A DNA stretch of 64,000 nucleotides from Candidatus Limnocylindria bacterium (GCA_038207785.1 JBBQZK010000004.1:3095-67094), one strand, 5' to 3'; numbered from the stretch's first letter, positions 1,282-25,020 are shown. The notes: a model not told the origin generated them from the letters alone. Translations and numbers: made by a program.

Positions 1282-3048
1282 TTGCAACCTGCAAGCCGGA
1301 TGCTGTTCCCGACCGCGCTCCAACGCGGCGTCGCCATGCCCGCCAGGCTCGGATTACGAGGGGTCACGGTGCCTCGATGGGCCCTTCTCGTCCTCGGCAT
1401 CGGGGTATTGGCCGCCATCCCGCACGCCATCAACATGTGGGCCTACCCGGCCTTCACGATCGCGGACGACGAAGGTATCTACGCCAGCCAGGCGGTCGAA
1501 TGGCTGCGCACCGGGGCCCTCGCTCCGTACACGTACACATATGACCACGCGCCGGCCGGCTGGATCCAGATCGCGCTGTTCTACGTCCTCACGGGTGGCG
1601 CCGCGACCTTCGGTACGCCCGTCGATGGCGCTCGAGTGCTGATGCTGCTGTTCCACATTGGCAGCGCGCTGCTCCTGTACCGCCTCGCCCGCCGCCTGGG
1701 TGGATCGGCGCTCGCCGCGGTCCTCGCGGTGGTCCTGTTCAGCGTGTCGCCGCTCGCGGTCTTCTATCAGCGGATGGTGCTGCTCGACAACATCATGATG
1801 TTCTGGCTCCTGCTCAGTCTCGTGCTCACGCTCGATGCGCGGTCACGGGCCTGGCTCGCCGCGAGCGGACTCGCGTTCGGTGTGGCCCTGCTGTCCAAGG
1901 AGTTCGCCGCGCTGCTCGCGCCGATCCTGCTCGTCCTCGCGTGGCGGCGAGGCGGCTGGCGCGGCCTGCTCGCGTGGACGGGCGCCGTCGTGCTCGTGGT
2001 GCTGCCCTACCCGCTGTACGCCCTGTCGCGCGGCGAGCTGTTCCCGGTGACCGATCCGTACCTGCCGTACGTGGTGGACAACGACTCCGCGGCCCGGCCG
2101 TCGCTCATCAGCACCTTGCTGTGGCAGCTGACGCGCTCCGGTGGTGGTCCGTTCTCGCTGACGAACAATTTCTTCTGGTATCTCCGCAACGACTGGCTGT
2201 GGCGCGACGCGGTGCTGCTCGTCATCGGCTTGGCCGCGATCTTCGTGAATACGTGGCGGGCGCGCCGGCGGCCGGGGCTGCGCATCGCCGCCGCGATCGG
2301 CCTGATCACGTGCCTGTATCTCGCGCGTGGCGGCATCGTGTTCGGCTTCTACATCGTGTTCGCGGTCCCGTTCCTCGCGTTGAATGTCGCGCTCGTCCTC
2401 GACCCGGTGTTCGCGCGCATCGGTCCGCGGCGCGCGATGCGGCTCAGTGGATCGCTGCTCGTCCTGCTCCTCGGCACGTACTGGTGGAGTGGGACGCTGC
2501 AGCCGCTCTACACCCAGCGGCCCGACGGACCCGGCCGCGAGGCCGCGTCGTGGATCAAGACGTATGTGCCGCCGACCGCGACCATTGTCGGGCGTGACGA
2601 CCTGCTCGCGTATCTGCGCGAGCCGATCGACGGTCCGGCGTTCGACGGATTCCAGGTCCACTGGAAGGTGGCGCACGATCCGAGCGTTCGCCGCGAGCTC
2701 GGCTACGACTGGTCGCGGATCGATTACCTCGTGATCGATCCGCACGAGCTCGACGACCTCGCCGGCACGGACAACAGGCTCGCCCTTGCGGCGCTGGCGC
2801 ATGCCCACGTGGTCGCGGAGTGGACGTTCGTGAACCCGGGCATCGGCAATCTGCACTGGGACCAGCGGATCCAGATCTGGGAGGCCGACCGGCTGCGGGA
2901 TCCGAACCTCGCGGCGTTCAGCGCATGGAGCTTCCACGGGCGCGATCAGGTCTGCGGGCCGCGCGTCGCCTCATGCGATGAGATCGTGATCGCGCGCCAG
3001 CCCTACGCGACGGCGGCCGCCCGGCCTGGAGCGATCGTCGAGCGCTGA
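1282..3048 (+). CDS. Glycosyltransferase family 39 (PMT/ArnT-like, phospholipid-carrier-dependent) integral membrane protein
   Basis: 588-aa ORF with about 10 predicted TM helices and N-terminal GT39-type motifs (YPAFTIADDEGIYASQAVEWL, LSKEFAAL). The listed start is TTG; the ATG at 1336 (MPARLGLRG...) is an alternative. Confidence 0.7.
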   Translation: MQPASRMLFPTALQRGVAMPARLGLRGVTVPRWALLVLGIGVLAAIPHAINMWAYPAFTIADDEGIYASQAVEWLRTGALAPYTYTYDHAPAGWIQIALFYVLTGGAATFGTPVDGARVLMLLFHIGSALLLYRLARRLGGSALAAVLAVVLFSVSPLAVFYQRMVLLDNIMMFWLLLSLVLTLDARSRAWLAASGLAFGVALLSKEFAALLAPILLVLAWRRGGWRGLLAWTGAVVLVVLPYPLYALSRGELFPVTDPYLPYVVDNDSAARPSLISTLLWQLTRSGGGPFSLTNNFFWYLRNDWLWRDAVLLVIGLAAIFVNTWRARRRPGLRIAAAIGLITCLYLARGGIVFGFYIVFAVPFLALNVALVLDPVFARIGPRRAMRLSGSLLVLLLGTYWWSGTLQPLYTQRPDGPGREAASWIKTYVPPTATIVGRDDLLAYLREPIDGPAFDGFQVHWKVAHDPSVRRELGYDWSRIDYLVIDPHELDDLAGTDNRLALAALAHAHVVAEWTFVNPGIGNLHWDQRIQIWEADRLRDPNLAAFSAWSFHGRDQVCGPRVASCDEIVIARQPYATAAARPGAIVER

Positions 3049-3084
3049 GCCCCGGTCAGTACTGGTCAGGCCTCAGCACCCGCG

Positions 3085-4275
3085 TCACCCGAGCGCGCCC
3101 TGGGCCGCGGTCGCGGCCGAGCGCAACCGCTGCATATCGGCGGGGCTGAGCCGGACGGCGTTCCGATAGAAGAGCGCGAGCACGCCGACGGGCGTGCCTG
3201 CCGAGAGGATCGGGACGAATGCCGCGGAGCGCGCGCCGGCCACCAGGTCACCGCCGGCGTCGACGGTCACGATGCCCGTGCCCCGCACCGCGCGTGCAAC
3301 GGCGGGCACCCCGAGGAACGGGCGGTCCGCAGTCTGGTCCGCGGTCCCGGCCGTGCCGGCGATCCGCAGCCGTCCGGCACCCGAGAGCCCGAACAGCATC
3401 ACCCCGTCAGCCGCCAGCGCAGGGCGCATCCGTCGTGCGAAGTCATCTCCGACCGCGTGCGCACGGACGGTGTCCCGGAGGAGCGCATCGGCTCGCCGGT
3501 CACGCACGATCGGTGCGCGAAGGAAGCCTGCAACGACGCCGACGAGCACGAGCACCGCCGCTGCAACGGCATTCCCTCCGGTGCGCAGCTCCGTCGCGTC
3601 CACCGGATGCCCGGTGATCGTCCAGAGCGCCAACGTGATCGCGCCCACCAGGGCCGCGGCGACGGCCCCGAGCGCCGGACCGAGCAGGAACCCCGCGGCA
3701 CCGACGCTCGCGATGCCCAGCGCCGCAGCGCCCGCGGCGATGCGCGGCTCCCCGACCAGATATGCGACCACGTACGAGACCACCGCTGCGAGCAGCAAAG
3801 CGATATCGCGGGCGGGTATCGCCCGGGACCGACCCTGCAGCCGCGCGAAGCTGGAAAGATGCACGGTCGTGGACGTCTGACCGCGGCGCAGCTCGCGCAG
3901 CGTGTCGAGCAGCCGCGCCTGGCTCCCGTCCTTGCTCACGACCGCGGTTGCCCCGAGTCGATAGGCCTCCTCGGAGATCGACGGCGACATCGAGAACACG
4001 ACGACGATCGTGTCCGGAAGCGCGGATCGGAGCACGGGCAGCACCTCGAGCCCTCGGCGGCCGGGCATCTCGTTGTCCAGCAGGATGAGATCGGGTCGCA
4101 ACGCCAACGCGAGATGCACTCCCTCGTAGGCGGTCGCGGCCTCGCCGACGGTACGCAGGCTCGCGTCGGTCTCGACGAGCGTGCGAAGCCCGTCGCGCAC
4201 CGCGCTGCTGTCGTCGATGATCAGCACGGAGCTCGCGACCGCCGCCGCTGCTCCATCGCGTTCATCCGCCATCAT
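3085..4275 (-). CDS. Response-regulator receiver domain protein with membrane segments and a C-terminal GAF-like domain
   Basis: Internal start MMADERDG at 4275, found by residue count in ORF 3085..4944. Receiver motifs are present (VLIIDDSSAVRDGL...LILLDNEMPGRRGLEVL...VVVFSMS), followed by hydrophobic helices and a GAF-like C-terminus. The upstream 5' part of the listed ORF is Arg/Asp-rich GC-artefact sequence. Confidence 0.6.
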   Translation of the reverse strand: MMADERDGAAAAVASSVLIIDDSSAVRDGLRTLVETDASLRTVGEAATAYEGVHLALALRPDLILLDNEMPGRRGLEVLPVLRSALPDTIVVVFSMSPSISEEAYRLGATAVVSKDGSQARLLDTLRELRRGQTSTTVHLSSFARLQGRSRAIPARDIALLLAAVVSYVVAYLVGEPRIAAGAAALGIASVGAAGFLLGPALGAVAAALVGAITLALWTITGHPVDATELRTGGNAVAAAVLVLVGVVAGFLRAPIVRDRRADALLRDTVRAHAVGDDFARRMRPALAADGVMLFGLSGAGRLRIAGTAGTADQTADRPFLGVPAVARAVRGTGIVTVDAGGDLVAGARSAAFVPILSAGTPVGVLALFYRNAVRLSPADMQRLRSAATAAQGALG

Positions 4276-13960: not shown

Positions 13961-14863
13961 TCAAGCCCGGGCTCCCTTGGAGAGCTGAGACCGGACCGAG
14001 AACGAGGCCCCGAAGCCACCGACCAGGAGCGCGAACCCAAGGACGCCGGCGGCCAGCTCGAGCACGAAGCTCGTCCCGAGCGACACCGGGAGGATGTCCA
14101 GGAAGCCGACCATCGCGCTCGTGACGGGCTGCGCGGCTGCGGCGAGGACCGCGAGCGCGACGATCGCGCCGAGGACCCCGACGAGCATCCCTTCGACGAT
14201 GAACGGCCAGCTCACGAACCAGTCGGTGGCGCCGACGAGCTGCATGATCTCGATCTCATCACGTCGGGCATGCACGGCGATGCGGATCGTGTTCACGATG
14301 ACGAACAGCGCGACGAACAGCATCATCGCCAGGACCGCGAGCCCGCCGATCGAGAGCACCCGCGTGATGGTGAGCAGCTTCTCGACGACGGTCGGGTTGT
14401 CGATGACGTCGGTCACGACGCCGCGACCGAGCTCCTCGCGCAGCGATGCGGCCAAGCGGCCGGTCGCCTGGGCGTTCGCCAGCTTGACCTCGAGCGACGC
14501 GGGCAGCGGGTTCGTGCCGATGTCGGCCAGGGTGAAGTCCTCTTTGCGCTGAGCGAGCTCCCGTAGCCGCTCGAGCGCCTGCTGCTTGGTGACGTACTCG
14601 ACCCGGGCCACTGCCGGGTCCTTCTCGATCCGCGCCTTGAGGGCGAGCGTGTCGGACGGCTTCGCGCCCTCGTCGATGTACAGGACGAGCTCGACCTTGG
14701 ACTCGAGCGCGACCACCGCGGCTTGGAGCCCGCGGTCGGTCACGATGAAGAACGCGAACAGCAGCAGCATGAGTGACACCGTCAGCGTCGCGGCCACGCT
14801 CATGACGGGGTTGCGCCAGAAGCCCTGCCACGCGGCAACGAAGACGTAGCCGATGCGCCTCAT
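13961..14863 (-). CDS. ftsX: Cell-division permease FtsX
   Basis: 300 aa with 4 TM helices, an FtsX extracellular domain and the C-terminal permease motif ([25 protein letters not shown]). Overlaps ftsE by 4 nt. Confidence 0.9.
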
Positions 14864-15540
14864 GCCGCGTACAGCCCTTCGCGCTCGTCCCGCACGACGG
14901 ATCCCTTGTCGAGATGGATGACCCGGCGGCGGAGCGCGTTCACGATCTCGGCGTTGTGGGTGGCCATGACGAGGGTCGTGCCGAGCTCCTGCACGTGCGT
15001 GAGGAGCTTGATGATCTCCCAGCTCGTGACCGGGTCGAGGTTGCCGGTGGGCTCGTCGGCGATGAGGACTCGCGGCCGGTTCACGAGGGCGCGTGCGATG
15101 GCGACGCGCTGCTGCTCTCCGCCGGAGAGCTCGCGCGGGAAGTGGCTGCGACGGTGTGAAAGACCGACGACCTGCAATGCGCGCTCGGTCTCCTCACGGA
15201 CCACGCGGCCCGTGTGTCCGGTGACGACGAGCGCGAACGCGACGTTCTCGGTGACGGTCTTGGTCGGGAGCAGCTTGAAGTCCTGGAACACGACGCCGAC
15301 CAGCCGTCGAAGGTGCGGTACCTGCGACCGGCGCATACGGGCGACGTCCTTGCCGTTCACGACGACCCGGCCGGTGGTCGGGAGCTCCTCCCGGATGAGG
15401 AGCCGGATGAGGGTCGACTTCCCCGCTCCCGATGAGCCGACGAGGAAGGCGAATTCGCCCGCGCCGATGGTGAGGTCGACGTCCTGCAAAGCCGCGGTCC
15501 CGTTCGGGTAACGCTTGCTGACGTCCTCGAGACGGATCAA
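14860..15540 (-). CDS. ftsE: Cell-division ATP-binding protein FtsE
   Basis: Walker A (GSSGAGKST), ABC signature ([15 protein letters not shown]) and Walker B ([11 protein letters not shown]). The TTG start at 15540 ([11 protein letters not shown]) has a GGGAAGAGGAAA RBS. The listed ORF start lies 30 codons upstream. Confidence 0.9.
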
Positions 15541-15715
15541 ATCCGGTCGGTTTCCTCTTCCCTCAGCGTCCGGAGCGCACGTTTTCGTGCTCCTGGCACG
15601 AAGGTAACGGGGCACCGTGGCGCAACGCAACGGCTTTTGGTAGCGATTTCGTACTGTCCAGGTGTGCGTGTCGCAGGAACGTACGCGCGGCGGACAAGCC
15701 CGGTAACGGGCGCCG

Positions 15716-18700
15716 CTAGCTGTTCGGGAGACCGAGACCCGGCTGCGACGGGCGCAGCGTCGCGAATGTCGCGATCGATGCGATCTTCGCTTCGCCGGTC
15801 GCCATGACCTTCACGCCCTGCGTCGCGCGGCCGAGTACCCGGATCTGGTCCATCGGAACGCGGATGACCACGCCGTTCGTCGAGATGAGCAGCACCTCGT
15901 CGCTCTTCTCATCGATGACCTGGATCGCCGCGACGTTGCCGGTCTTCGCCGTGACCGACGCGAGGATGACGCCCTGGCCGCCGCGGTTGTGCGTCGGGAA
16001 GTCCTCGACCTTGGTCCGCTTGCCGTAGCCGTTCTCGGTGACCGAGAGGACCTCCATCCGCGCATTCACGACGCCCATGCCGATGACCTCGTCGCCCTTC
16101 GAGAGCCGGATGCCGGTGACACCCTGGGTCTGGCGGCCCATGGGCCGCGTGTCGGTGGCCTGGAAGGTGATGGCCTTGCCCTTCTTGGTGGCGATGACGA
16201 TGCGATCCTTGTCGCCGGCCGCGGCGACCCAGGCGAGGCGGTCGTCCTTGCGCAGGAGGATCGCAATGAGGCCGGCCCGGCGCACGTTGCCGTACTCGGC
16301 GAGCGGGGTCTTCTTCACGAAGCCCTTCCGGGTGGCCATGACCAGGTGCGGGATCGAGCCGCCCTCGCGGATCGCGATGAGCGCGGAGACCCGCTCGCCG
16401 GACTGCATGGCCTCGAGGATGTTCTGGATCGGCGTGCCCTTCGCGGTCCGGCTCGCGTCCGGGAGCTCGAACGCCTTGAGCGCGAACACCCGGCCGCGGT
16501 CCGTGAACACGTACAGGCGGTCGTGGTTGCGAGCGACGACCAGATGCTCGACATCGTCCTCGTCGCGGGTGGCCATGCCGATGACGCCTCGCCCGCCGCG
16601 GTGCTGGGCCTTGTACGTCGACAGAGGCATCCGCTTCACGTAGTTGCGGGTCGAGACGGTGATGACGACGTCCTCGTCGGCGACCAGATCCTGGTCGGTG
16701 AGCTCGCGGTTGAGGTCATCGAGGATCTTCGTGCGGCGGTCGTCTCCGTACTTCGCGACGAGCTCGTCCATGTCCTGCTTGATCAGGAACAGGATCTTGC
16801 GCGCGTTTCCGAGGATCGACTCGAGCTCGGCGATGAGCTTGATGGTCTCGCGGTACTCGTCCTCGACCCGCTGGCGCTCGAGGCCGGTCAGGCGGCGGAG
16901 CTGCATGTCCAGGATCGCGCGGGCCTGGATCTCCGAAAGCTCGAACTTCTCGCGGAGATTGGCAAGCGCTGACTCCGGGCTCTTGCTCGCACGGATGGTC
17001 TTCACGATCTCGTCGATGTGGTCGAGCGCGATCTTGAAGCCCTCGAGGATATGCGCGCGCTCCTTGGCTTTCCCGAGATCGAACTCCGTGCGCCGCTTGA
17101 TGACCTGCTTGCGGTAGTCGATGTGGTGCTGCAGAACGTCCTTCAGCGACAGCGTCTTCGGTGACGAATCGACGAGCGCGAGCATGTTCAGGTTGAACGC
17201 CGACTGCATCGCCGTGTGCTTGTACAGGTTGTTGAGGACGCGCTCGGCGTTGTCGTCGCGCTTGATCTCGACGACGACCCGCATGCCCTCGCGGTCGCTC
17301 TCGTCGCGGATGTCGGAGATGCCGGCGAGTCGCTTGCCCTGCACGAGGTCGGCGATCTTCTCGATCAGGGTCGCCTTGTTCACCGCGTACGGCAGTTCGG
17401 TGACCACGATGGACTGCCGCCCGCCCTTCCCGTCCTCCACGTGGGCCTTGGCCCGCATGAGGATCCGGCCGCGGCCGTTCGCGTACGCGCGGCGGATCGC
17501 GTCCACGCGCTCCGCCGCGCCGGTCTCGATGTTCTTCTGCTCCTCGAACCGGTAGATGACCCCGCCACCCGGGAAGTCCGGACCGAGCACCGTCTCGCAG
17601 AGGTCGTCGTTGGTGAGCTCCGGATCGTCGACCAGCCGTTTGGTGGCCTCAGCGACCTCGCGGAGGTTGTGCGGCGGGATGTTGCTCGCCATGCCGACCG
17701 CGATGCCGGTCGATCCGTTGATGAGCAGGCTCGGTACGCGCGCCGGGAGCACCGTGGGCTGCATGTGCCTGCTGTCGTAGTTCGGGTACCAGTCGACGGT
17801 CTCCTTCTCGATGTCCGCGAGCAGCTCCGCCGCGATGGCCGCCGGACGCGCTTCCGTGTTGTGGCTGACGAAGCCGTTCGTGATGAAGCTGTGGTCGTCC
17901 GTGTCGACGCGCAGCGAGTACACCGGCTGCATGCCGGCGTCCTCGACCGCGTCAACGGTCGCGTAGTAGTACGTGCCGTCCACCAGCGGCTCGACGACGC
18001 GGCGTACCTCGTCGTTCGTCAGGTGCGCGAGGATCTCCTCGCGGTCGCGCTCCCATCGTTCGATGCGATCGACGTTGTGCTTCTGGAGCCACTCTCGGTC
18101 CGTCCAGCGGGCCATGCGCTCGCTGCGGATGTATTCGGCGACGAACGGCACCGCGTCCGCGCTCATCGCGGTGCTCACGAGCGGGATCTGCGCGAGCTCG
18201 CTCTCGAGCTTCTTTTGCTTCGCGCCGTGGAAGCCGACGGTCGCCGCGAACCGTCGCGCGTCGCGGCGATTGGTCAGCACGACCTTGATCTCGCCGTTGT
18301 CGTAATGGCACTGCTTGGACACGACGCCGAACTCCAGAAGGAGCAGCTGCACTTCGGTCGCGAGGCGCTGGCTGCGCGTCGAGTAGCTGACCTGGATCGC
18401 GTTCCCGCCCTGGGTACGGAGGACGGAGGACGAGCCATCACCCTCGAAGAGCGCACGCAGGAATGCCGCTTTGAAGGCAGCCGAGCCGGCCCAGACGAAC
18501 GCCGGCACGTGCTTGTCCGCGCTGCGGAGGCCGACCATCTCCGCCAAAGGGCTCGCCTTGAGAGCGGTCATGTTGTGGACGTCGAGCTCGTGCAGACGAT
18601 TCTCGGATCTGATGATCCTGGAATAGGCGTAGCGCGGGCCACCGACGATGTCGCCGTATGCGCTCGTGACCGCGTCGAAGTAGTCCGGGTCGAGGTTGTT

Positions 18701-19975
18701 GAAGCCGGCGCGACGCTCTGAGGCCCAACCCTCCGACACCATCCCACCCGCCAGCGTTGCCAACGCGAGTTCCCGTGGCGTGAGCTCGCCGATCGGGGCG
18801 CCGGACGCAGGACGACGCAGCATCGCGACCCGATCCCCGGGCGCGATCTCCTCCAGCAGCTTCCACACGAGCATCGGCACGCCTGCGAGGGGCTGGAGCG
18901 TCAACACGGGGTGGTTGGTGGTGCCGGTCAGCTCGTAGCCCTCGCGGGTGCGCATGCGCAGGGTCGGATGTGTTCCGGAGTGGAACAGCGTGTTCACGTG
19001 AACGGGCATACCGCGCCGATCGAGCACCGTGAGATCGACGGCGTTGTCGGACTCGGCCTCGGCGCCTGCGACGATGTCCGCGATCCGGACGGTCCGATCC
19101 GCCGTTCGCACGAGCGTGTCTCCTGTCGTGCAGTACCTCATATGGGCTGGTGGGTCATCATCGATCGAGTTGTGCACGAAGACGCCGGCGGCGAGCGCGA
19201 AGTTCTGCGTCACGTCGACGGTGAGGTCGTACACGTCCGTCTTCCCGGCGGGTACGACCGACGCGACGACCTGCGACAGGCTCGCGGGCACCGGGAACGC
19301 CCCCGTTCGATGGAGACGCTCGGGGATGGCCGTGCGCGCGAACGGCATGAGCTGGTCCTTCGCCTTGAGCGTGCTCGCCTCGTGATAGGTCCCGTCGCGC
19401 ATCATGAATCGGTGGTCCGGCGTGCAGACGATCTCCGCGCCGGACACGAGGGTCACCTTCACTACGGTGTCGTTGCGCTTCACCAGCCGCGGCGCGCGCA
19501 GCGGCTTGATGCGGACGTTGCGATGCGCATCGAGCGTGAACACCTCCGCGCGGACGCCGCGGTGGACCATCTCGACGAGCTCGATGAACGTGCGCTGCTC
19601 GCCGTTCACGAGCTCGACCTTCGTGTCGCCGGAGAAGCAGCCGAAGTTGCCCTGGCCCTGGATCGGCGGGTAGCGCATCGTGAAGTCCTGCGCGAAGCGC
19701 GCGAGGGCGTCGTAGATCGGCACATCACCGTGCGGGTGGTACTTCCCCATCACGTCGCCGACGATGGCCGCTGATTTCCGGAACGGCCGGTCGCTGCGAA
19801 GGCCCATCTCGTGCATCGTCCAGAGGATCCGGCGCTGCACGGGCTTCAGCCCATCGCGCACATCAGGCAGCGCGCGCGCGACGATGACGGTCATCGCGTA
19901 GTCGAGGTAGGCCTTCCGCATCTCGGTCTCGAGCTCGACGCCCACCTCGCGCTGGTCGTCCGGTCGTTCGATCAC
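15716..19975 (-). CDS. gyrA: DNA gyrase subunit A precursor containing two inteins (837-aa extein)
   Basis: N-terminus matches GyrA ([35 protein letters not shown]). The catalytic-Tyr region reads GQGNFG|intein|[12 protein letters not shown]|intein|TEARP. A GyrA-box (QHRGGRGV) and a C-terminal beta-pinwheel are present. At 1419 aa it is far longer than the usual 800-900 aa. Confidence 0.9.
17858..19132 (-). mobile_element. Intein 2 in GyrA (425 aa) with a LAGLIDADG homing-endonuclease domain, inserted after the catalytic Tyr (MRY/TEAR site)
   Basis: Strong similarity to the Mycobacterium GyrA inteins ([10 protein letters not shown]...VRIADIV...[10 protein letters not shown]...[23 protein letters not shown]). 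Internal LAGLIDADG-like blocks ([13 protein letters not shown] and [12 protein letters not shown]) are present. Confidence 0.85.
19169..19639 (-). mobile_element. Mini-intein 1 in GyrA (157 aa, no endonuclease domain), inserted between Gly112 and Ser of the GNFG/S motif
   Basis: Begins [10 protein letters not shown] (block A), has TPDH (block B), ends [23 protein letters not shown], and is followed by a Ser nucleophile. Removing it restores the conserved GQGNFGSIDGD-type motif. Coordinates come from a residue count in the ORF and were verified at both ends. Confidence 0.75.
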
Positions 19976-20496
19976 GTTCTGGCGTGCTCCTTGTGCTGTG
20001 CTTCGGCTTCGACCGCCGCGCGTACGCGCGCAAAGGCCTCGTCGGTCCGCGAGTAGCGCCGCTCGAGCTCGGCGCGGCGCTCATCGGGCATGCGCAGGAA
20101 CAGCGCTGTCGCCTCGGCGAGCACCTCGCCGTCGTCGGCGCGGGCCACGGTGCCGCTGGTCTCGATGCCGCGGCCGCGGTCCCGGAGGACCGTTCCGGTG
20201 ACGACGAGCTCCTCGCCAACGGGCACGGGCCGCTTGAAGGTGACGTTGATCTTCGCGGTCACGCCCCACACACCCTGATGGAAGATCGCCCAGCCCATCG
20301 TCTCATCGAGCAACGCCGTGACGACGCCACCGTGCAGCGTGCCGTCGTAGCCCTGGTGGCGCCGGTCGGCGGTGTACCGGGCCGTCGCGCGATCCGTGGA
20401 GACGTCGAAGTCCAGCTGCAGGCCGGTCGGATTGAGGCGGCCGCAGGCGAAGCACCAGTGCTCGAAGTCGACGCCCAGATCCAGCAGTCGCGCCAC
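19972..20496 (-). CDS. PaaI-family hotdog-fold acyl-CoA thioesterase
   Basis: 174 aa with an N-terminal HWCFACGRLNPTGLQL motif and a hotdog core (GTLHGGVVTALLDETMGWA). Its stop overlaps the gyrA start and its start abuts the gyrB stop. Confidence 0.7.
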   Translation of the reverse strand: MARLLDLGVDFEHWCFACGRLNPTGLQLDFDVSTDRATARYTADRRHQGYDGTLHGGVVTALLDETMGWAIFHQGVWGVTAKINVTFKRPVPVGEELVVTGTVLRDRGRGIETSGTVARADDGEVLAEATALFLRMPDERRAELERRYSRTDEAFARVRAAVEAEAQHKEHART

Positions 20497-23493
<2,997 letters not shown>

Positions 23494-23494
<1 letters not shown>

Positions 23495-24288
23495 TACGCC
23501 CCCACTCCGCCGAGGGCGATCGGGACCCGCGAGGCCAGGCGCATCGAGATCTCCTGGGCCAGATCGCCGTAGGCCTGCGCGGCGCGCGACCCGGGGTCGT
23601 AGACGTTGATCGGCTGACCGTGACTGGGCGCCTCGGCGAGACGCACGGCCCGCGGAATTCGCACGCGCGCGACGAGCTGCGGGAAGTGGCGGATGACCTC
23701 CTCGGTCACCTGCATCGAGAGCCGGTTCCGGCGGTCCTCCATCGTCAGGACGATCGCGAGCACCTCGAGCTTGGCGTTCAGGCGGATTCGGACAGCATCG
23801 ATCGTCGACAAGAGCTGCGCGAGGCCTTCGAGCGCGTAGTACTCGCATTGGACGGGCACGAGCACCGCGTCCGCGGCAGCGAGCGCATTGACGGTCAAGA
23901 GCCCAAGCGACGGTGGACAGTCAATGAGGACGGTGTCGTAGCTCGCGCCCTCGCGGCCCAGCGCCTCGCGGAGGCGGAATTCACGGGCCATCAATGGCAC
24001 GAGCTCGACCTCGGCCCCAGCCATCTCCGGAGACGACGGCAGTAGATCGAAGCCTGCCATCGCGGTCGGCTGGACCGCCTCGCCAAGCGGCTCATCCCGA
24101 ACCAGGACGCCATAAATGGAGTGCGGCTGATCCTTGCTGACGCCCAGGCCGCTGGTCGCGTTGCCCTGCGGATCCAAGTCTATCAACAGGACGCGCGAGC
24201 CCTTTTCGACGAGCGCGGCAGCCAGGCTGATGGCAGTCGTCGTCTTCCCCACTCCACCTTTTTGGTTACTGATTGCGAGCACATTCAT
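23494..24288 (-). CDS. parA: Chromosome partitioning ATPase ParA (Soj)
   Basis: 264 aa starting MNVLAISNQKGGVGKTTTAISLAAAL with a deviant Walker A, plus LIDLDPQGNAT and the other conserved blocks. It forms the 3' end of listed ORF 23494..24948. Confidence 0.9.
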
Positions 24289-24290
24289 GG

Positions 24291-24306
24291 CGTGACAAAC
24301 GTGAAA
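24291..24306. promoter_or_regulatory. Degenerate parS-like site immediately upstream of parA
   Basis: tgacaaACGTGAAACA matches the parS consensus TGTTTCACGTGAAACA at 12 of 16 positions, with a perfect right half-site. The coordinates carry a ±2-nt uncertainty. Confidence 0.3.
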
Positions 24307-24414
24307 CATTGGATGCAGGGGCGACCCGAGGATGTCGTGTTGTGCCCCACTGGAGACGTTTATTGTACCCGAAGTGGTGCGCAAACCGAAGTCACGACTG
24401 GCTGCGTAAGAGCA

Positions 24415-25020
24415 TTGGCGTTGACTCTCGCTGCGTTGGCTGCATTGGCGAGCTACCTGGTCGGGAGCATCCCGAGCGCGCTCATCGCCGCTCGATTGGC
24501 CGGTCGACCGGACCCCCGGACCGTCGGAACGCGGAACGCCGGATCTACGAACGTGGCCCTGACGGTCGGTCCCCGTGCCGGCATCGCCGTGCTCGTCGCG
24601 GACCTGCTGAAGGGGGTGATGTGTGGATTGGCCGGGCTCATCATCGGCGGAGATCTCCTCGGCGATACCTGCGCACTGCTCGCGATCATCGGCCAGATCG
24701 CGCCGGTCTTCGCGGGCTTTCGGGGTGGGAAAGGAGCTGCGACGACGCTCGGTGGCTACATCGGCGTCGCGCCGGCGCTTGCAGTCATCGGTCTGGTGAC
24801 CTGGGGCTTCGGCCTGCTGCTCATCCGGCGCGCGGTGCTGAGCACGGTGACCGCGATCCTGGCGCTTGGCGTCGTGACGGTGCTGCTCCAGCAGCACCTG
24901 GCCTTCGGCATCGGCGCGGGCCTCCTCACGCTCGTCGCCCATCGGCACGACCTCGCGGCGTGGCGGCGCGGCGAAATGCCGAACATTCGCCAGGCCCTGC
25001 GGGATAATCGACGCGAGTGA
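24415..25020 (+). CDS. plsY: Glycerol-3-phosphate acyltransferase PlsY
   Basis: Only the 3' 201 codons of ORF 24121..25020 are credible because the 5' part is antisense to parA. TTG start at 24415. PlsY motifs include ASYLVGSIPSALIAARL, RTVGTRNAGSTNV and FAGFRGGKGAATTLG. Confidence 0.75.
   Translation: MALTLAALAALASYLVGSIPSALIAARLAGRPDPRTVGTRNAGSTNVALTVGPRAGIAVLVADLLKGVMCGLAGLIIGGDLLGDTCALLAIIGQIAPVFAGFRGGKGAATTLGGYIGVAPALAVIGLVTWGFGLLLIRRAVLSTVTAILALGVVTVLLQQHLAFGIGAGLLTLVAHRHDLAAWRRGEMPNIRQALRDNRRE

Follow-up and report, generated by a model that had tools for sequence, protein, structure and literature searches.

Cells cannot do without DNA gyrase, which is also a drug target, and any intein lodged in its active site has to splice if the cell is to survive. 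The gyrA gene of a Candidatus Limnocylindria bacterium, located in a window of 64,000 nucleotides (the whole stretch of DNA that was analysed, with positions counted from its first letter), raises the question of whether two insertions bracketing the catalytic tyrosine are inteins that can be removed from the precursor, and what maintains each of them. The preferred answer, to which a probability of about 85% is given, is a real double intein: a fixed mini-intein and a patchily distributed homing intein, both of which would be spliced out of the GyrA active-site loop. Both inteins are of already known kinds, and their pairing is seen in other public genomes too.

The gyrA precursor and its re-joined exteins

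All features described below lie on the minus strand. The gyrA reading frame (15716-19975) starts with GTG, ends with the stop codon at 15716-15718 and encodes 1419 aa, which corresponds to 157.5 kDa in the unspliced form. It clears the cut-offs of two NCBIfam gyrA equivalogs (NF004043, 1064.7 bits, cut-off 902; TIGR01063, 1019.1 bits, cut-off 877). The whole precursor scores 1482.6 bits against NF038098, the model of the "intein-containing DNA gyrase subunit A"; this is under the cut-off of 1850, because the model describes a single-intein GyrA and both the extra intein and the phylum distance lower the score. Upstream of gyrA are found a 4HBT thioesterase ORF of 174 aa (19972-20496), whose stop overlaps the gyrA start, and gyrB (20497-22614). 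The 705 aa of GyrB contain gyrase domains only, in line with the initial annotation, which had described gyrB as intein-free, and when both inteins were used as phmmer queries, no further intein was detected among the ORF segments of at least 150 aa in the 64-kb window.

The precursor is composed of three extein segments interrupted by two insertions. The N-extein (aa 1-112; 19640-19975) aligns to solved GyrA and ends with GQGNFG, and the C-extein (aa 707-1419; 15719-17857) begins with TEARPAAIA; Pfam detects DNA_topoisoIV in it, for the remainder of the topoisomerase core, and six DNA_gyraseA_C repeats, for the beta-propeller C-terminal domain. Between the inteins, a spacer extein of 12 codons is left (aa 270-281; 19133-19168). 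The catalytic tyrosine is the last residue of this spacer, directly before intein 2 (precursor aa 281, mature aa 124; codon 19133-19135). The two insertions, intein 1 of 157 aa (aa 113-269; 19169-19639) and intein 2 of 425 aa (aa 282-706; 17858-19132), occupy exactly the positions given by the initial annotation, which had also noted canonical splicing junctions at their ends. These junctions read G/C...HN/S and Y/C...HN/T, respectively (the slash marks the insertion point here and below).

When both insertions are removed, the computed extein has 837 aa and 93.1 kDa, and the computed masses of the inteins are 17.4 kDa for intein 1 and 47.1 kDa for intein 2. The first 231 aa of the spliced protein align to solved gyrases with E=1.5e-86 (query 12-225, chain 427-640) and with no gap over either junction; the equivalent of the spacer in these structures reads GNFGSvDGDnAAaMRYTE and matches without gaps. 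The flanks thus re-join into the conserved active-site segment GQGNFGS..xMRYTEAR, as had been expected. The low GC3 of the 36-nt spacer (0.58, compared with about 0.93 elsewhere) was considered as a sign of foreign DNA or of a homing site and was dropped: it is the noise of 12 codons, because 70 other loci have ordinary GC-rich codons at this place.

Anatomy of the two inteins and the proposed splicing pathway

The identity of both insertions as inteins, claimed earlier from the translation, is borne out by profile and homology searches. Pfam Intein_splicing matches both inserts (1.5e-14 and 1.4e-09), as do the NCBIfam models intein_Nterm and intein_Cterm, the latter with 23 bits for intein 1 (cut-off 15.6). 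The landmarks of intein 1 are Cys1 at aa 113, block B with TPDH at aa 185-188, block F with DVYDLTVD at aa 247-254, and block G with VHN ending in Asn269, followed by Ser270. The Cys1 nucleophile, the TxxH of block B, the His268-Asn269/Ser270 junction and the in-frame, removable character of the insertion are those of a class-1 intein. The AF2 model of intein 1 (pLDDT 88.8, pTM 0.83) was compared with the PDB by Foldseek, where the best 50 matches are all inteins or BIL domains, with TM values up to 0.85 (Mtu RecA, Npu DnaE, Ssp DnaB). A HINT fold of intein 1 is therefore predicted with confidence.

In intein 1, searches of Pfam and NCBIfam gave splicing-domain matches only, and a homing endonuclease is missing from the stretch that leads from block B to block F. 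Instead, intein residues 103-118 form a 16-residue linker at the position where relatives have an insert of 200-370 aa. This linker includes a 12-residue loop (intein residues 105-116; 19292-19327), the amino acids of which are invariant in 69 distinct sequences, with 2-4 synonymous codons per position. A derivation of the loop from the central domain that larger inteins have at this site was considered, but the alignment is ambiguous and this reading was dropped. Besides Cys1, intein 1 has a near-invariant cysteine, Cys72, which adjoins block B.

Intein 2 has Cys1 at aa 282, block B with TTNH in GTTNHP at aa 351-356, block F with VYSLRVD at aa 685-691, and block G with SHN ending in Asn706, followed by Thr707. 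It matches the intein part of NF038098 (GyrA_w_intein) with 558.7 bits (3e-167) and the Mxe GyrA intein 1AM2 with E=4.8e-51. Its middle part, about aa 390-652 (18020-18808), is a LAGLIDADG homing-endonuclease domain (Pfam LAGLIDADG_3, 1.2e-16), which was the profile to be sought according to the initial annotation. Motif 1 (aa 408-417; 18725-18754) contains LAGGMVSEG with the acidic Glu, and motif 2 (aa 506-515; 18431-18460) contains LFEGDGS with the acidic Asp; both acidic residues are kept in all site-2 inteins aligned. Together with the dN/dS of 0.133 over this domain, which indicates purifying selection, this points to an apparently intact endonuclease. Inteins 1 and 2 were also considered as duplicates of each other. 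This idea was rejected, since BLASTP finds no similarity between them and the inteins at the two sites belong to separate families.

Both insertions are accordingly classified by their motifs as class-1 inteins, and we infer that both splice. In the proposed pathway, gyrA would be translated as the 157.5-kDa precursor with its active-site loop interrupted by two unrelated class-1 inteins, each of which would fold as its own HINT module and splice autonomously. Such independence is consistent with the AF2 model computed for the segment with both inteins: the HINT module of intein 2 is modelled confidently and that of intein 1 mostly confidently, while pLDDT falls below 50 at model residues 161-167 and 195-199 within intein 1 and at 211-217 in the spacer (precursor aa 270-276). 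For each intein, Cys1 (C113 or C282) would form a thioester, which would be attacked by the +1 nucleophile (Ser270 or Thr707). The cyclisation of the terminal Asn (N269 or N706), aided by the penultimate His, would then free the intein, and an O-to-N shift would restore the normal peptide bond. The expected products are the 93-kDa GyrA and free inteins of 17 and 47 kDa.

Distribution in Limnocylindria and the alternative readings

The distribution of the inteins was followed in 69 related loci, with one genome per species. Of these, 68 carry intein 1, and the only exception is the basal locus L066, which has an intein-free allele at this site. The length of intein 1 is 157 aa every time, and C1, T73, H76, D135, H156, N157 and S+1 are invariant in 69/69 distinct sequences. 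The dN/dS of intein 1 (0.074) is similar to that of the exteins (0.05-0.07), its dS is the same as that of the host gene, and invariant columns make up 38% of intein 1 versus 28% of the adjacent N-extein. As judged from these loci, intein 1 is fixed in the class Limnocylindria. The endonuclease-less intein would have become fixed in an ancestor of the class and would now be inherited vertically, being kept functional because gyrase is essential.

The distribution of intein 2 is patchy. It occurs in 13 of the 69 loci (L001-L012 and L063), which are scattered on the host tree; the neighbour-joining tree is too crude for counting gains and losses. Alleles lacking intein 2 (L059, L014) are nested in an intein-2-bearing clade, and the intein appears also on separate branches, in L011 and in L009, the latter beside L070, which is without it. 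The DNA of empty sites in close relatives is almost equal to the flanks of occupied sites. One metagenome bin holds both an intein-2-plus and an intein-2-minus allele, with 93% identical DNA, and the alignment stops exactly at the insertion point.

Such a pattern suggests that intein 2 is probably a homing intein which is still mobile. It would be spreading, or would have spread recently, within Limnocylindria by cutting empty MRY/TEAR sites and being copied in at repair, and its patchiness would follow from homing spread and renewed loss. The 36-bp spacer is probably long enough for this, as the LAGLIDADG target of about 20 bp would stay undisturbed by intein 1. Alternatively, the intein entered once in an ancestor, has been inherited vertically since then and is no longer mobile, its endonuclease being inactive or having another role, and the gaps in its distribution are repeated precise deletions. 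The identity of intein-2 copies falls in step with that of their hosts (80% at 94% host identity, 73% at 86%, 69% at 79%), a trend that is also compatible with an old intein passed on vertically and precisely lost several times, and Limnocylindria copies are 67-90% identical to each other versus at most 57% to copies from outside. Yet precise in-frame loss would be needed in many lineages, as about 55 of the 69 loci are without the intein, including the two within the bearing clade, which is less parsimonious than homing. The purifying selection on an endonuclease with intact catalytic residues also speaks against immobility, and so does the dS of intein 2 (0.66-0.83): it is higher than in the neighbouring parts of the host gene (0.33-0.50), in agreement with a history of the intein that is partly separate from that of the host. 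The single ancestral entry is possible, though doubtful. Also in favour of the preferred reading, intein 2 is 56-57% identical to a Rubrobacteraceae GyrA intein, while the exteins reach just 48%.

The remaining readings question the splicing, the assembly or the role of intein 1. In one of them, one or both insertions fail to splice, which would make gyrA either a pseudogene or the gene of a gyrase that keeps its insertions for good, and the function would be provided by another gyrA copy. This is very improbable, considering that the ORF is intact in a conserved gyrB-gyrA operon, the exteins are under the strong constraint given above, all splicing residues are invariant, and the insertions split the catalytic-Tyr loop, where solved gyrases have none. 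Even less credit can be given to an artefact of assembly or binning, in which an intein-bearing fragment of another organism was joined to gyrA. Some related contigs (L024, L017, L051, L063) do break in or near the intein region and some are binned under implausible taxa, but the same in-frame two-intein architecture is present in 13 independent assemblies, the GC and GC3 of the inteins are like those of the host gene (GC3 0.94 and 0.88 versus 0.92-0.94), and the divergence of the inteins scales with that of the hosts. Unlikely, but of more weight than these two, is the retention of intein 1 as a domesticated post-translational switch that gates the active site of gyrase throughout the class. 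The splicing of intein 1 might be conditional on redox (through Cys1 and Cys72), temperature, DNA or GyrB, with the invariant loop possibly contacting GyrA, GyrB or DNA, and the active-site loop would be completed only when conditions permit; together with intein 2, the 12-residue tether might impose order or interdependence on both reactions. The catalytic-Tyr peptide would then be assembled in a controlled way where both inteins are present. The fixation, the constant length, the host-like conservation, the invariant loop outside the splicing blocks and the second cysteine by block B are in favour of such a role, and conditional splicing of inteins in replication proteins is documented for M. 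smegmatis DnaB and P. horikoshii RadA (PMC6195587 and PMC5790916). However, most of the conservation is already accounted for by the strong purifying selection for efficient splicing that acts on any intein in an essential active site, and the loop could be purely structural.

With the double intein as the preferred reading, the loci of this class form a natural series of otherwise near-identical host genes with no intein (L066), with the mini-intein only (about 55 species) and with both inteins (13 species and the window). The series can be used to test the independent splicing of inteins 12 residues apart and the gain of a regulatory role by a fixed mini-intein, and to study the invasion of a homing intein 36 bp from another intein. 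Both inteins are possible candidates for protein engineering, intein 1 being a compact Cys1/Ser+1 mini-intein long kept functional by its lineage.

Relatives at the two sites and beyond

By sequence comparison, intein 2 is a mycobacterial-type GyrA-a intein at the same site. Its insertion point is identical to that of the mycobacterial GyrA-a inteins such as the Mxe GyrA mini-intein (PDB 1AM2/4OZ6), AMRY/C...SHN/TEAR, and its junction is the same as in a Mycobacterium sp. sequence. Tyr-1, Cys1, His-Asn and Thr+1 are shared, and the LAGLIDADG endonuclease is similarly placed. Over its full length or nearly so, intein 2 is 45-66% identical to GyrA inteins of many Actinomycetota; the comparison with mycobacterial relatives gives 52-58% identity to Mycobacterium sp.-labelled sequences and as much as 63% to other Actinomycetota. 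The differences are the host, as Limnocylindria is a class of Chloroflexota and not of Actinomycetota, and the presence of a second intein 12 residues upstream. The GyrA-a family is thereby extended from Actinomycetota to Chloroflexota. Full-length relatives of the Mxe mini-intein occur in other mycobacteria and many Actinomycetota.

The family of intein 1, as recognised by alignment, also occupies GNFG/S in GyrA of unrelated organisms, which documents a second GyrA insertion site. The other inteins found there are uncharacterised database sequences (P0232, 353 aa; P0284, 522 aa; P0301, 189 aa; P0304, 141 aa; P0303, 394 aa) and have the insertion point of intein 1, G/C...VFVHN/S. Their identity to intein 1 is 34-48% over the N-terminal part or the full length and reaches 60-69% in blocks F and G. 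The three longest (353-522 aa) are enlarged by a big central insert where an endonuclease is usually located, in contrast to the 16-residue linker of intein 1. This insert, which Pfam does not recognise, contains RVRHHxDFNxxNNxPxN, which is HNH-like by eye only; an HNH domain is not claimed, since Pfam gives no match to one in these inteins even at E<=0.1.

The arrangement is less singular than it looks in this one gene, since both the GNFG/S site and the pair recur in unrelated lineages in public data. Tandem GyrA inteins at the same two sites are present in P0304 (1556 aa, marine metagenomes, locus GC 35%) and in the partial P0303 (1059 aa), where the site-1 intein has a large central domain. 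In both, a 12-residue spacer (SIDGDNAAAMRY and SVDGDSAAAMRY, respectively) separates the site-1 intein from a LAGLIDADG intein downstream at site 2. The exteins of P0304 are about 46% identical to Limnocylindria GyrA, and the site-2 inteins of both proteins are 28-29% identical to intein 2. On the basis of these deduced proteins, the 12-aa-spaced tandem is shared by two or more unrelated lineages of low GC. A junction-peptide search for double-intein proteins returned 7 partial matches only, a count limited by the word prefilter.

Several inteins in one essential gene of DNA metabolism, placed at functional motifs, have been described before, and their variable occupancy suggests independent gain and loss (PMC10643990, PMC8966425, PMC4760082, PMC6195587). 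Comparators are the haloarchaeal MCM-a/MCM-d pair and M. smegmatis DnaB with two inteins (PMC6195587). No exact figure for the distance between MCM-a and MCM-d was found in the text of PMC10643990. For MCM, interference between two homing endonucleases has been reported; Limnocylindria should be free of it, because intein 1 has no endonuclease. In P. abyssi CDC21, two mini-inteins are 48 aa apart and in T. kodakaraensis Pol two inteins are 85 aa apart (PMC8966425); the 12 aa of Limnocylindria GyrA are shorter than both, and the shortest known spacing is not claimed. No description of the GNFG/S site of GyrA or of the tandem was found in the literature searched; the supplementary tables of Novikova et al. 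(PMC4760082), with 50 bacterial GyrA inteins, some of them from Chloroflexi, may catalogue the site.

Intein 1 belongs to a broad "CF(S/T)GDT...CTPDHRF...GVFVHN" family with 3616 representatives (E<=1e-3). Members in other hosts, including RtcB, a T4-type portal protein and topoisomerase subunits with the intein at the Toprim site (EGDSAGG/C), are 35-54% identical to intein 1. They occupy other host sites, and the hosts often carry multiple inteins or versions of the intein with HNH.

The gyrA precursor and its two inteins

The gyrA gene is the longest open reading frame over the interval flagged in the initial annotation (15716–19975, minus strand) and encodes a precursor of 1419 aa. Cut at the boundaries proposed there, the translation consists of an N-extein of 112 aa ending in GQGNFG (aa 1–112, 19640–19975), intein 1 of 157 aa, running from CFSGDT to GVFVHN (aa 113–269, 19169–19639), a spacer of 12 aa (aa 270–281, 19133–19168), intein 2 of 425 aa, running from CTTGDT to NGFVSHN (aa 282–706, 17858–19132), and a C-extein of 713 aa starting with TEARP (aa 707–1419, 15719–17857), all on the minus strand. 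These coordinates and segment numbers were reproduced exactly on re-translation. The predicted spliced GyrA has 837 aa and 93.1 kDa, and the predicted free inteins have 17.4 and 47.1 kDa. The claimed re-joining of the flanks into the active-site segment is borne out, as an alignment of spliced residues 1–231 with solved GyrA chains runs through both junctions without a gap (E=1.5e-86). The gyrB gene (20497–22614) contains gyrase domains only, in agreement with the claim that it lacks an intein.

The identification of both segments as inteins is confirmed by several matches. Pfam detects Intein_splicing in both and a LAGLIDADG_3 domain within intein 2, and the NCBIfam models of the N- and C-terminal splicing regions match both inteins. 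Intein 2, inserted at MRY/T directly after the catalytic Tyr (the slash marks the insertion point), scores 558.7 bits against the intein part of the NCBIfam model "intein-containing DNA gyrase subunit A". In a search of solved structures, both halves of its splicing domain match the Mycobacterium xenopi GyrA intein (E=4.8e-51). It belongs to the GyrA-a family, which is known from mycobacteria; the sole test of this family on which the window GyrA falls short is the score cut-off for the whole protein in the NCBIfam exception model, a model of GyrA with one intein. Intein 1, inserted at GNFG/S, has only weak sequence matches to mini-inteins, e.g., NrdJ-1, Npu DnaE and Pho RadA. Its AlphaFold2 model is confident (pLDDT 88.8, pTM 0.83), and a Foldseek search of the PDB with this model gave only inteins and bacterial intein-like domains among the best 50 matches (TM-scores up to 0.85). 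Both the observation and the interpretation of the initial annotation stand.

The splicing of class-1 inteins follows an established chemistry, which we infer for both inteins of the window gyrA. Cys1 of each intein would undergo an N-S acyl shift, followed by trans-esterification onto the +1 Ser or Thr, cyclisation of the Asn with the assistance of the penultimate His, and an O-N shift forming a normal peptide bond. The 12-residue peptide with the catalytic Tyr (Tyr281 of the precursor, Tyr124 of the mature protein) would thereby be ligated at both ends. In the AlphaFold2 model of precursor residues 60–760, intein 2 is a confident module, with means of 10-residue blocks mostly at 85–98, intein 1 is mostly confident with local dips, and the first seven spacer residues have a pLDDT below 50. 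As regards folding, though not kinetics, the model agrees with two HINT domains that fold independently and are joined by a flexible tether.

Interference between two neighbouring homing endonucleases has been described for haloarchaeal MCM (PMC10643990). Such interference should not apply to the window gyrA, because intein 1 carries no endonuclease. The typical LAGLIDADG target is about 20 bp long, and a target of this size would fit in the 36-bp spacer together with the C-extein.

Genes with multiple inteins are common, especially in archaea (PMC10643990), and GyrA is among the top bacterial intein hosts, Chloroflexi included (PMC4760082). Neighbouring inteins are 48 aa apart in Pab CDC21 and 85 aa apart in Tko Pol (PMC8966425); compared with these, the spacing of 12 residues in the window GyrA is notably close, and no record status is claimed for it. 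The literature search, which had the supplementary tables of PMC4760082 outside its scope, returned no paper on the GNFG/S site, on inteins in Limnocylindria or on a tandem GyrA pair. The finding of a double intein in the window GyrA is correct and well formed, and it stays within established intein biology throughout. The locus is a good natural system for the study of neighbouring inteins, one that includes a fixed mini-intein (intein 1) with an unexplained invariant loop.

A 174-aa open reading frame of the 4HBT thioesterase family (19972–20496, minus strand) is located between gyrB and gyrA, adjoining the gyrB stop and overlapping with its own stop the GTG start of gyrA; such a gene is unusual in a gyrBA operon. 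By eye, ftsE and ftsX-like genes are located downstream of gyrA (13961–15630, minus strand) and parB and parA-like genes upstream of gyrB (22619–24948, minus strand). This gene set around gyrBA is typical of the chromosomal origin-proximal region.

Distribution of the inteins and probable homing of intein 2

The scan of one genome per species gave 79 related gyrA loci (L numbers), nearly all labelled Candidatus Limnocylindria or Chloroflexota, and the active-site region was parsed in the 71 that cover it. Both inteins are present in 13 Limnocylindria-type loci (L001–L012 and L063, whose contig stops within intein 2), intein 1 only in 55, and neither in one, L066, the deepest branch. An intein at the MRY/T site only occurs in two outsiders, L039 from Rubrobacteraceae and L078 from Archaeoglobaceae. 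The double arrangement recurs in 13 further loci and is therefore not an artefact of assembly, nor is it restricted to the window. Several typical Limnocylindria gyrA genes with 73–94% identity to the window (L010/L077, L018, L045, L053) were deposited under Saccharimonadales, Bathyarchaeia and Acidiferrales MAGs, and these labels look like binning errors.

In the neighbour-joining tree of the exteins, which leaves off the intein-2-bearing L008, intein 2 is found in one shallow clade that includes the intein-2-free L059 and L014, and on two or three separate branches (L011; L009 beside the intein-2-free L070). On the whole, intein 2 behaves like a homing element. A caveat is that its identity broadly follows that of the host within the class, so that much of the pattern may instead reflect vertical descent with repeated loss. 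At the empty sites of close relatives, the DNA is almost identical to that flanking occupied sites, reading …CATATGAGATAT/ACGGAAGCT… in L059/L014. The acidic residues of the LAGLIDADG motifs LAGGMVSEG and LFEGDGS are kept in every site-2 intein compared, and the endonuclease domain, as judged by its dN/dS of 0.133, is under purifying selection. The dS of intein 2 (0.66–0.83) is higher than that of the gene around it (0.33–0.50), which agrees with an intein history in part separate from that of its host. Across phyla, between Rubrobacteraceae and Limnocylindria, the identity of intein 2 (56–57%) exceeds that of the host protein (48%). The database search found full-length or near-full-length relatives of intein 2, with 45–66% identity, in the GyrA of numerous Actinomycetota, Mycobacterium among them, and among the sequences inspected the site is always …MRY/C…HN/TE…. 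Such similarity suggests a past transfer of intein 2 between Actinomycetota and Limnocylindria.

Alleles with and without intein 2 are found within a single MAG, SOY_30_metabat_212. The overlap of L063, with intein 2 (nt 2817–3197), and L024, without it (nt 1–381), has 93% DNA identity, and the alignment ends exactly at the insertion point of intein 2. One community therefore harbours both allele types. Other MAG contigs (L017, L051) also begin inside intein 1, and the gyrA intein region seems to break assemblies.

Two further features concern the sequence in front of the intein-2 site. The Arg codon two positions before the site (window 19136–19141) is often AGG or AGA (ATG AGR TAY), in both intein-2-bearing and intein-2-free alleles (L004, L007, L059, L016, L076, L061, L021, L022, L052, L065). 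AGG and AGA are seldom used in a genome of about 93% GC3, and here they may mark a footprint of co-conversion or a variant of the target site. The residue at −3 is Met in all intein-2-bearing Limnocylindria alleles (xMRY/TEARP), and in many intein-free lineages it is Gln, Glu, Ser, Pro, Asp or Ala, with L020 and L054 as examples of Gln, Glu or Pro; such non-Met sites could be endonuclease-resistant.

Conservation of intein 1 and its relatives

Intein 1 is exactly 157 aa long in all 69 sequences (68 loci and the window), each of them distinct. No variation occurs at Cys1, at the Thr and His of block B, at the Asp of block F, at the terminal His-Asn or at the +1 Ser. For the nine closest genomes, dN/dS and dS of intein 1 are 0.074 and 0.50, next to 0.05–0.07 and 0.33–0.50 for the exteins, and invariant columns make up 38% of intein 1 versus 28% of the adjoining N-extein. 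In its conservation, intein 1 resembles a host protein, as would an element that is inherited vertically and has to stay functional, and it probably splices efficiently.

The longest invariant run consists of 12 residues (intein residues 105–116, GyrA aa 217–228, 19292–19327, minus strand). It is kept across the 69 distinct Limnocylindria sequences despite synonymous codon variation, so the constraint acts on the protein. The run is not a splicing block, is longer than any of them, and is positioned where the relatives of intein 1 have a large central domain or insert.

In P0189, a 284-aa metagenome protein that represents a Limnocylindria-type GyrA fragment, intein 1 breaks off behind block B and continues in frame into the C-extein (…CTPDHRVMLRDGTPNYDNRH…), and the catalytic Tyr is missing. 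Either the protein stems from a deletion allele or pseudogene, or the assembly is chimeric.

The HMMER scan with intein 1 over 1.84 billion representatives returned 3616 relatives at E<=1e-3 (P numbers). They are inteins with 35–54% identity, and their many hosts include RtcB, a T4-type portal protein and Toprim-site topoisomerase subunits. The best 150 of the 3616 include homologous inteins situated exactly at GNFG/S in the GyrA of unrelated organisms, with 353 aa in P0232, 522 aa in P0284 and 189 aa in P0301. At least two lineages are occupied at both GyrA sites with a spacer of 12 residues. In P0304, a complete GyrA of 1556 aa found in marine metagenomes (locus GC 35%), a mini-intein of 141 aa is followed by the spacer SIDGDNAAAMRY and a LAGLIDADG intein of 433 aa; the corresponding parts of P0303 are a site-1 intein of 394 aa, SVDGDSAAAMRY and a LAGLIDADG intein of 437 aa. 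The site-1 inteins are mutually homologous, as are the site-2 inteins, with no detectable similarity between the two families.

The central insert of the large site-1 inteins has no Pfam match. In P0232, P0284 and P0303, the inserts are 200–370 aa long, with a motif RVRHHxDFNxxNNxPxN, HNH-like by eye only, and repeated W-x-D/E-P/x-x-Y/F-R units; they may represent an endonuclease or a DNA-binding module of an uncharacterised kind. The closest full-length relative of intein 1 outside GyrA (37% identity) is P0034, a free-standing HINT-like open reading frame of 184 aa (L080/L081, 4001–4555, plus strand). It has no recognisable host protein around it and is located directly downstream of a small open reading frame with a weak TIR_2 match.
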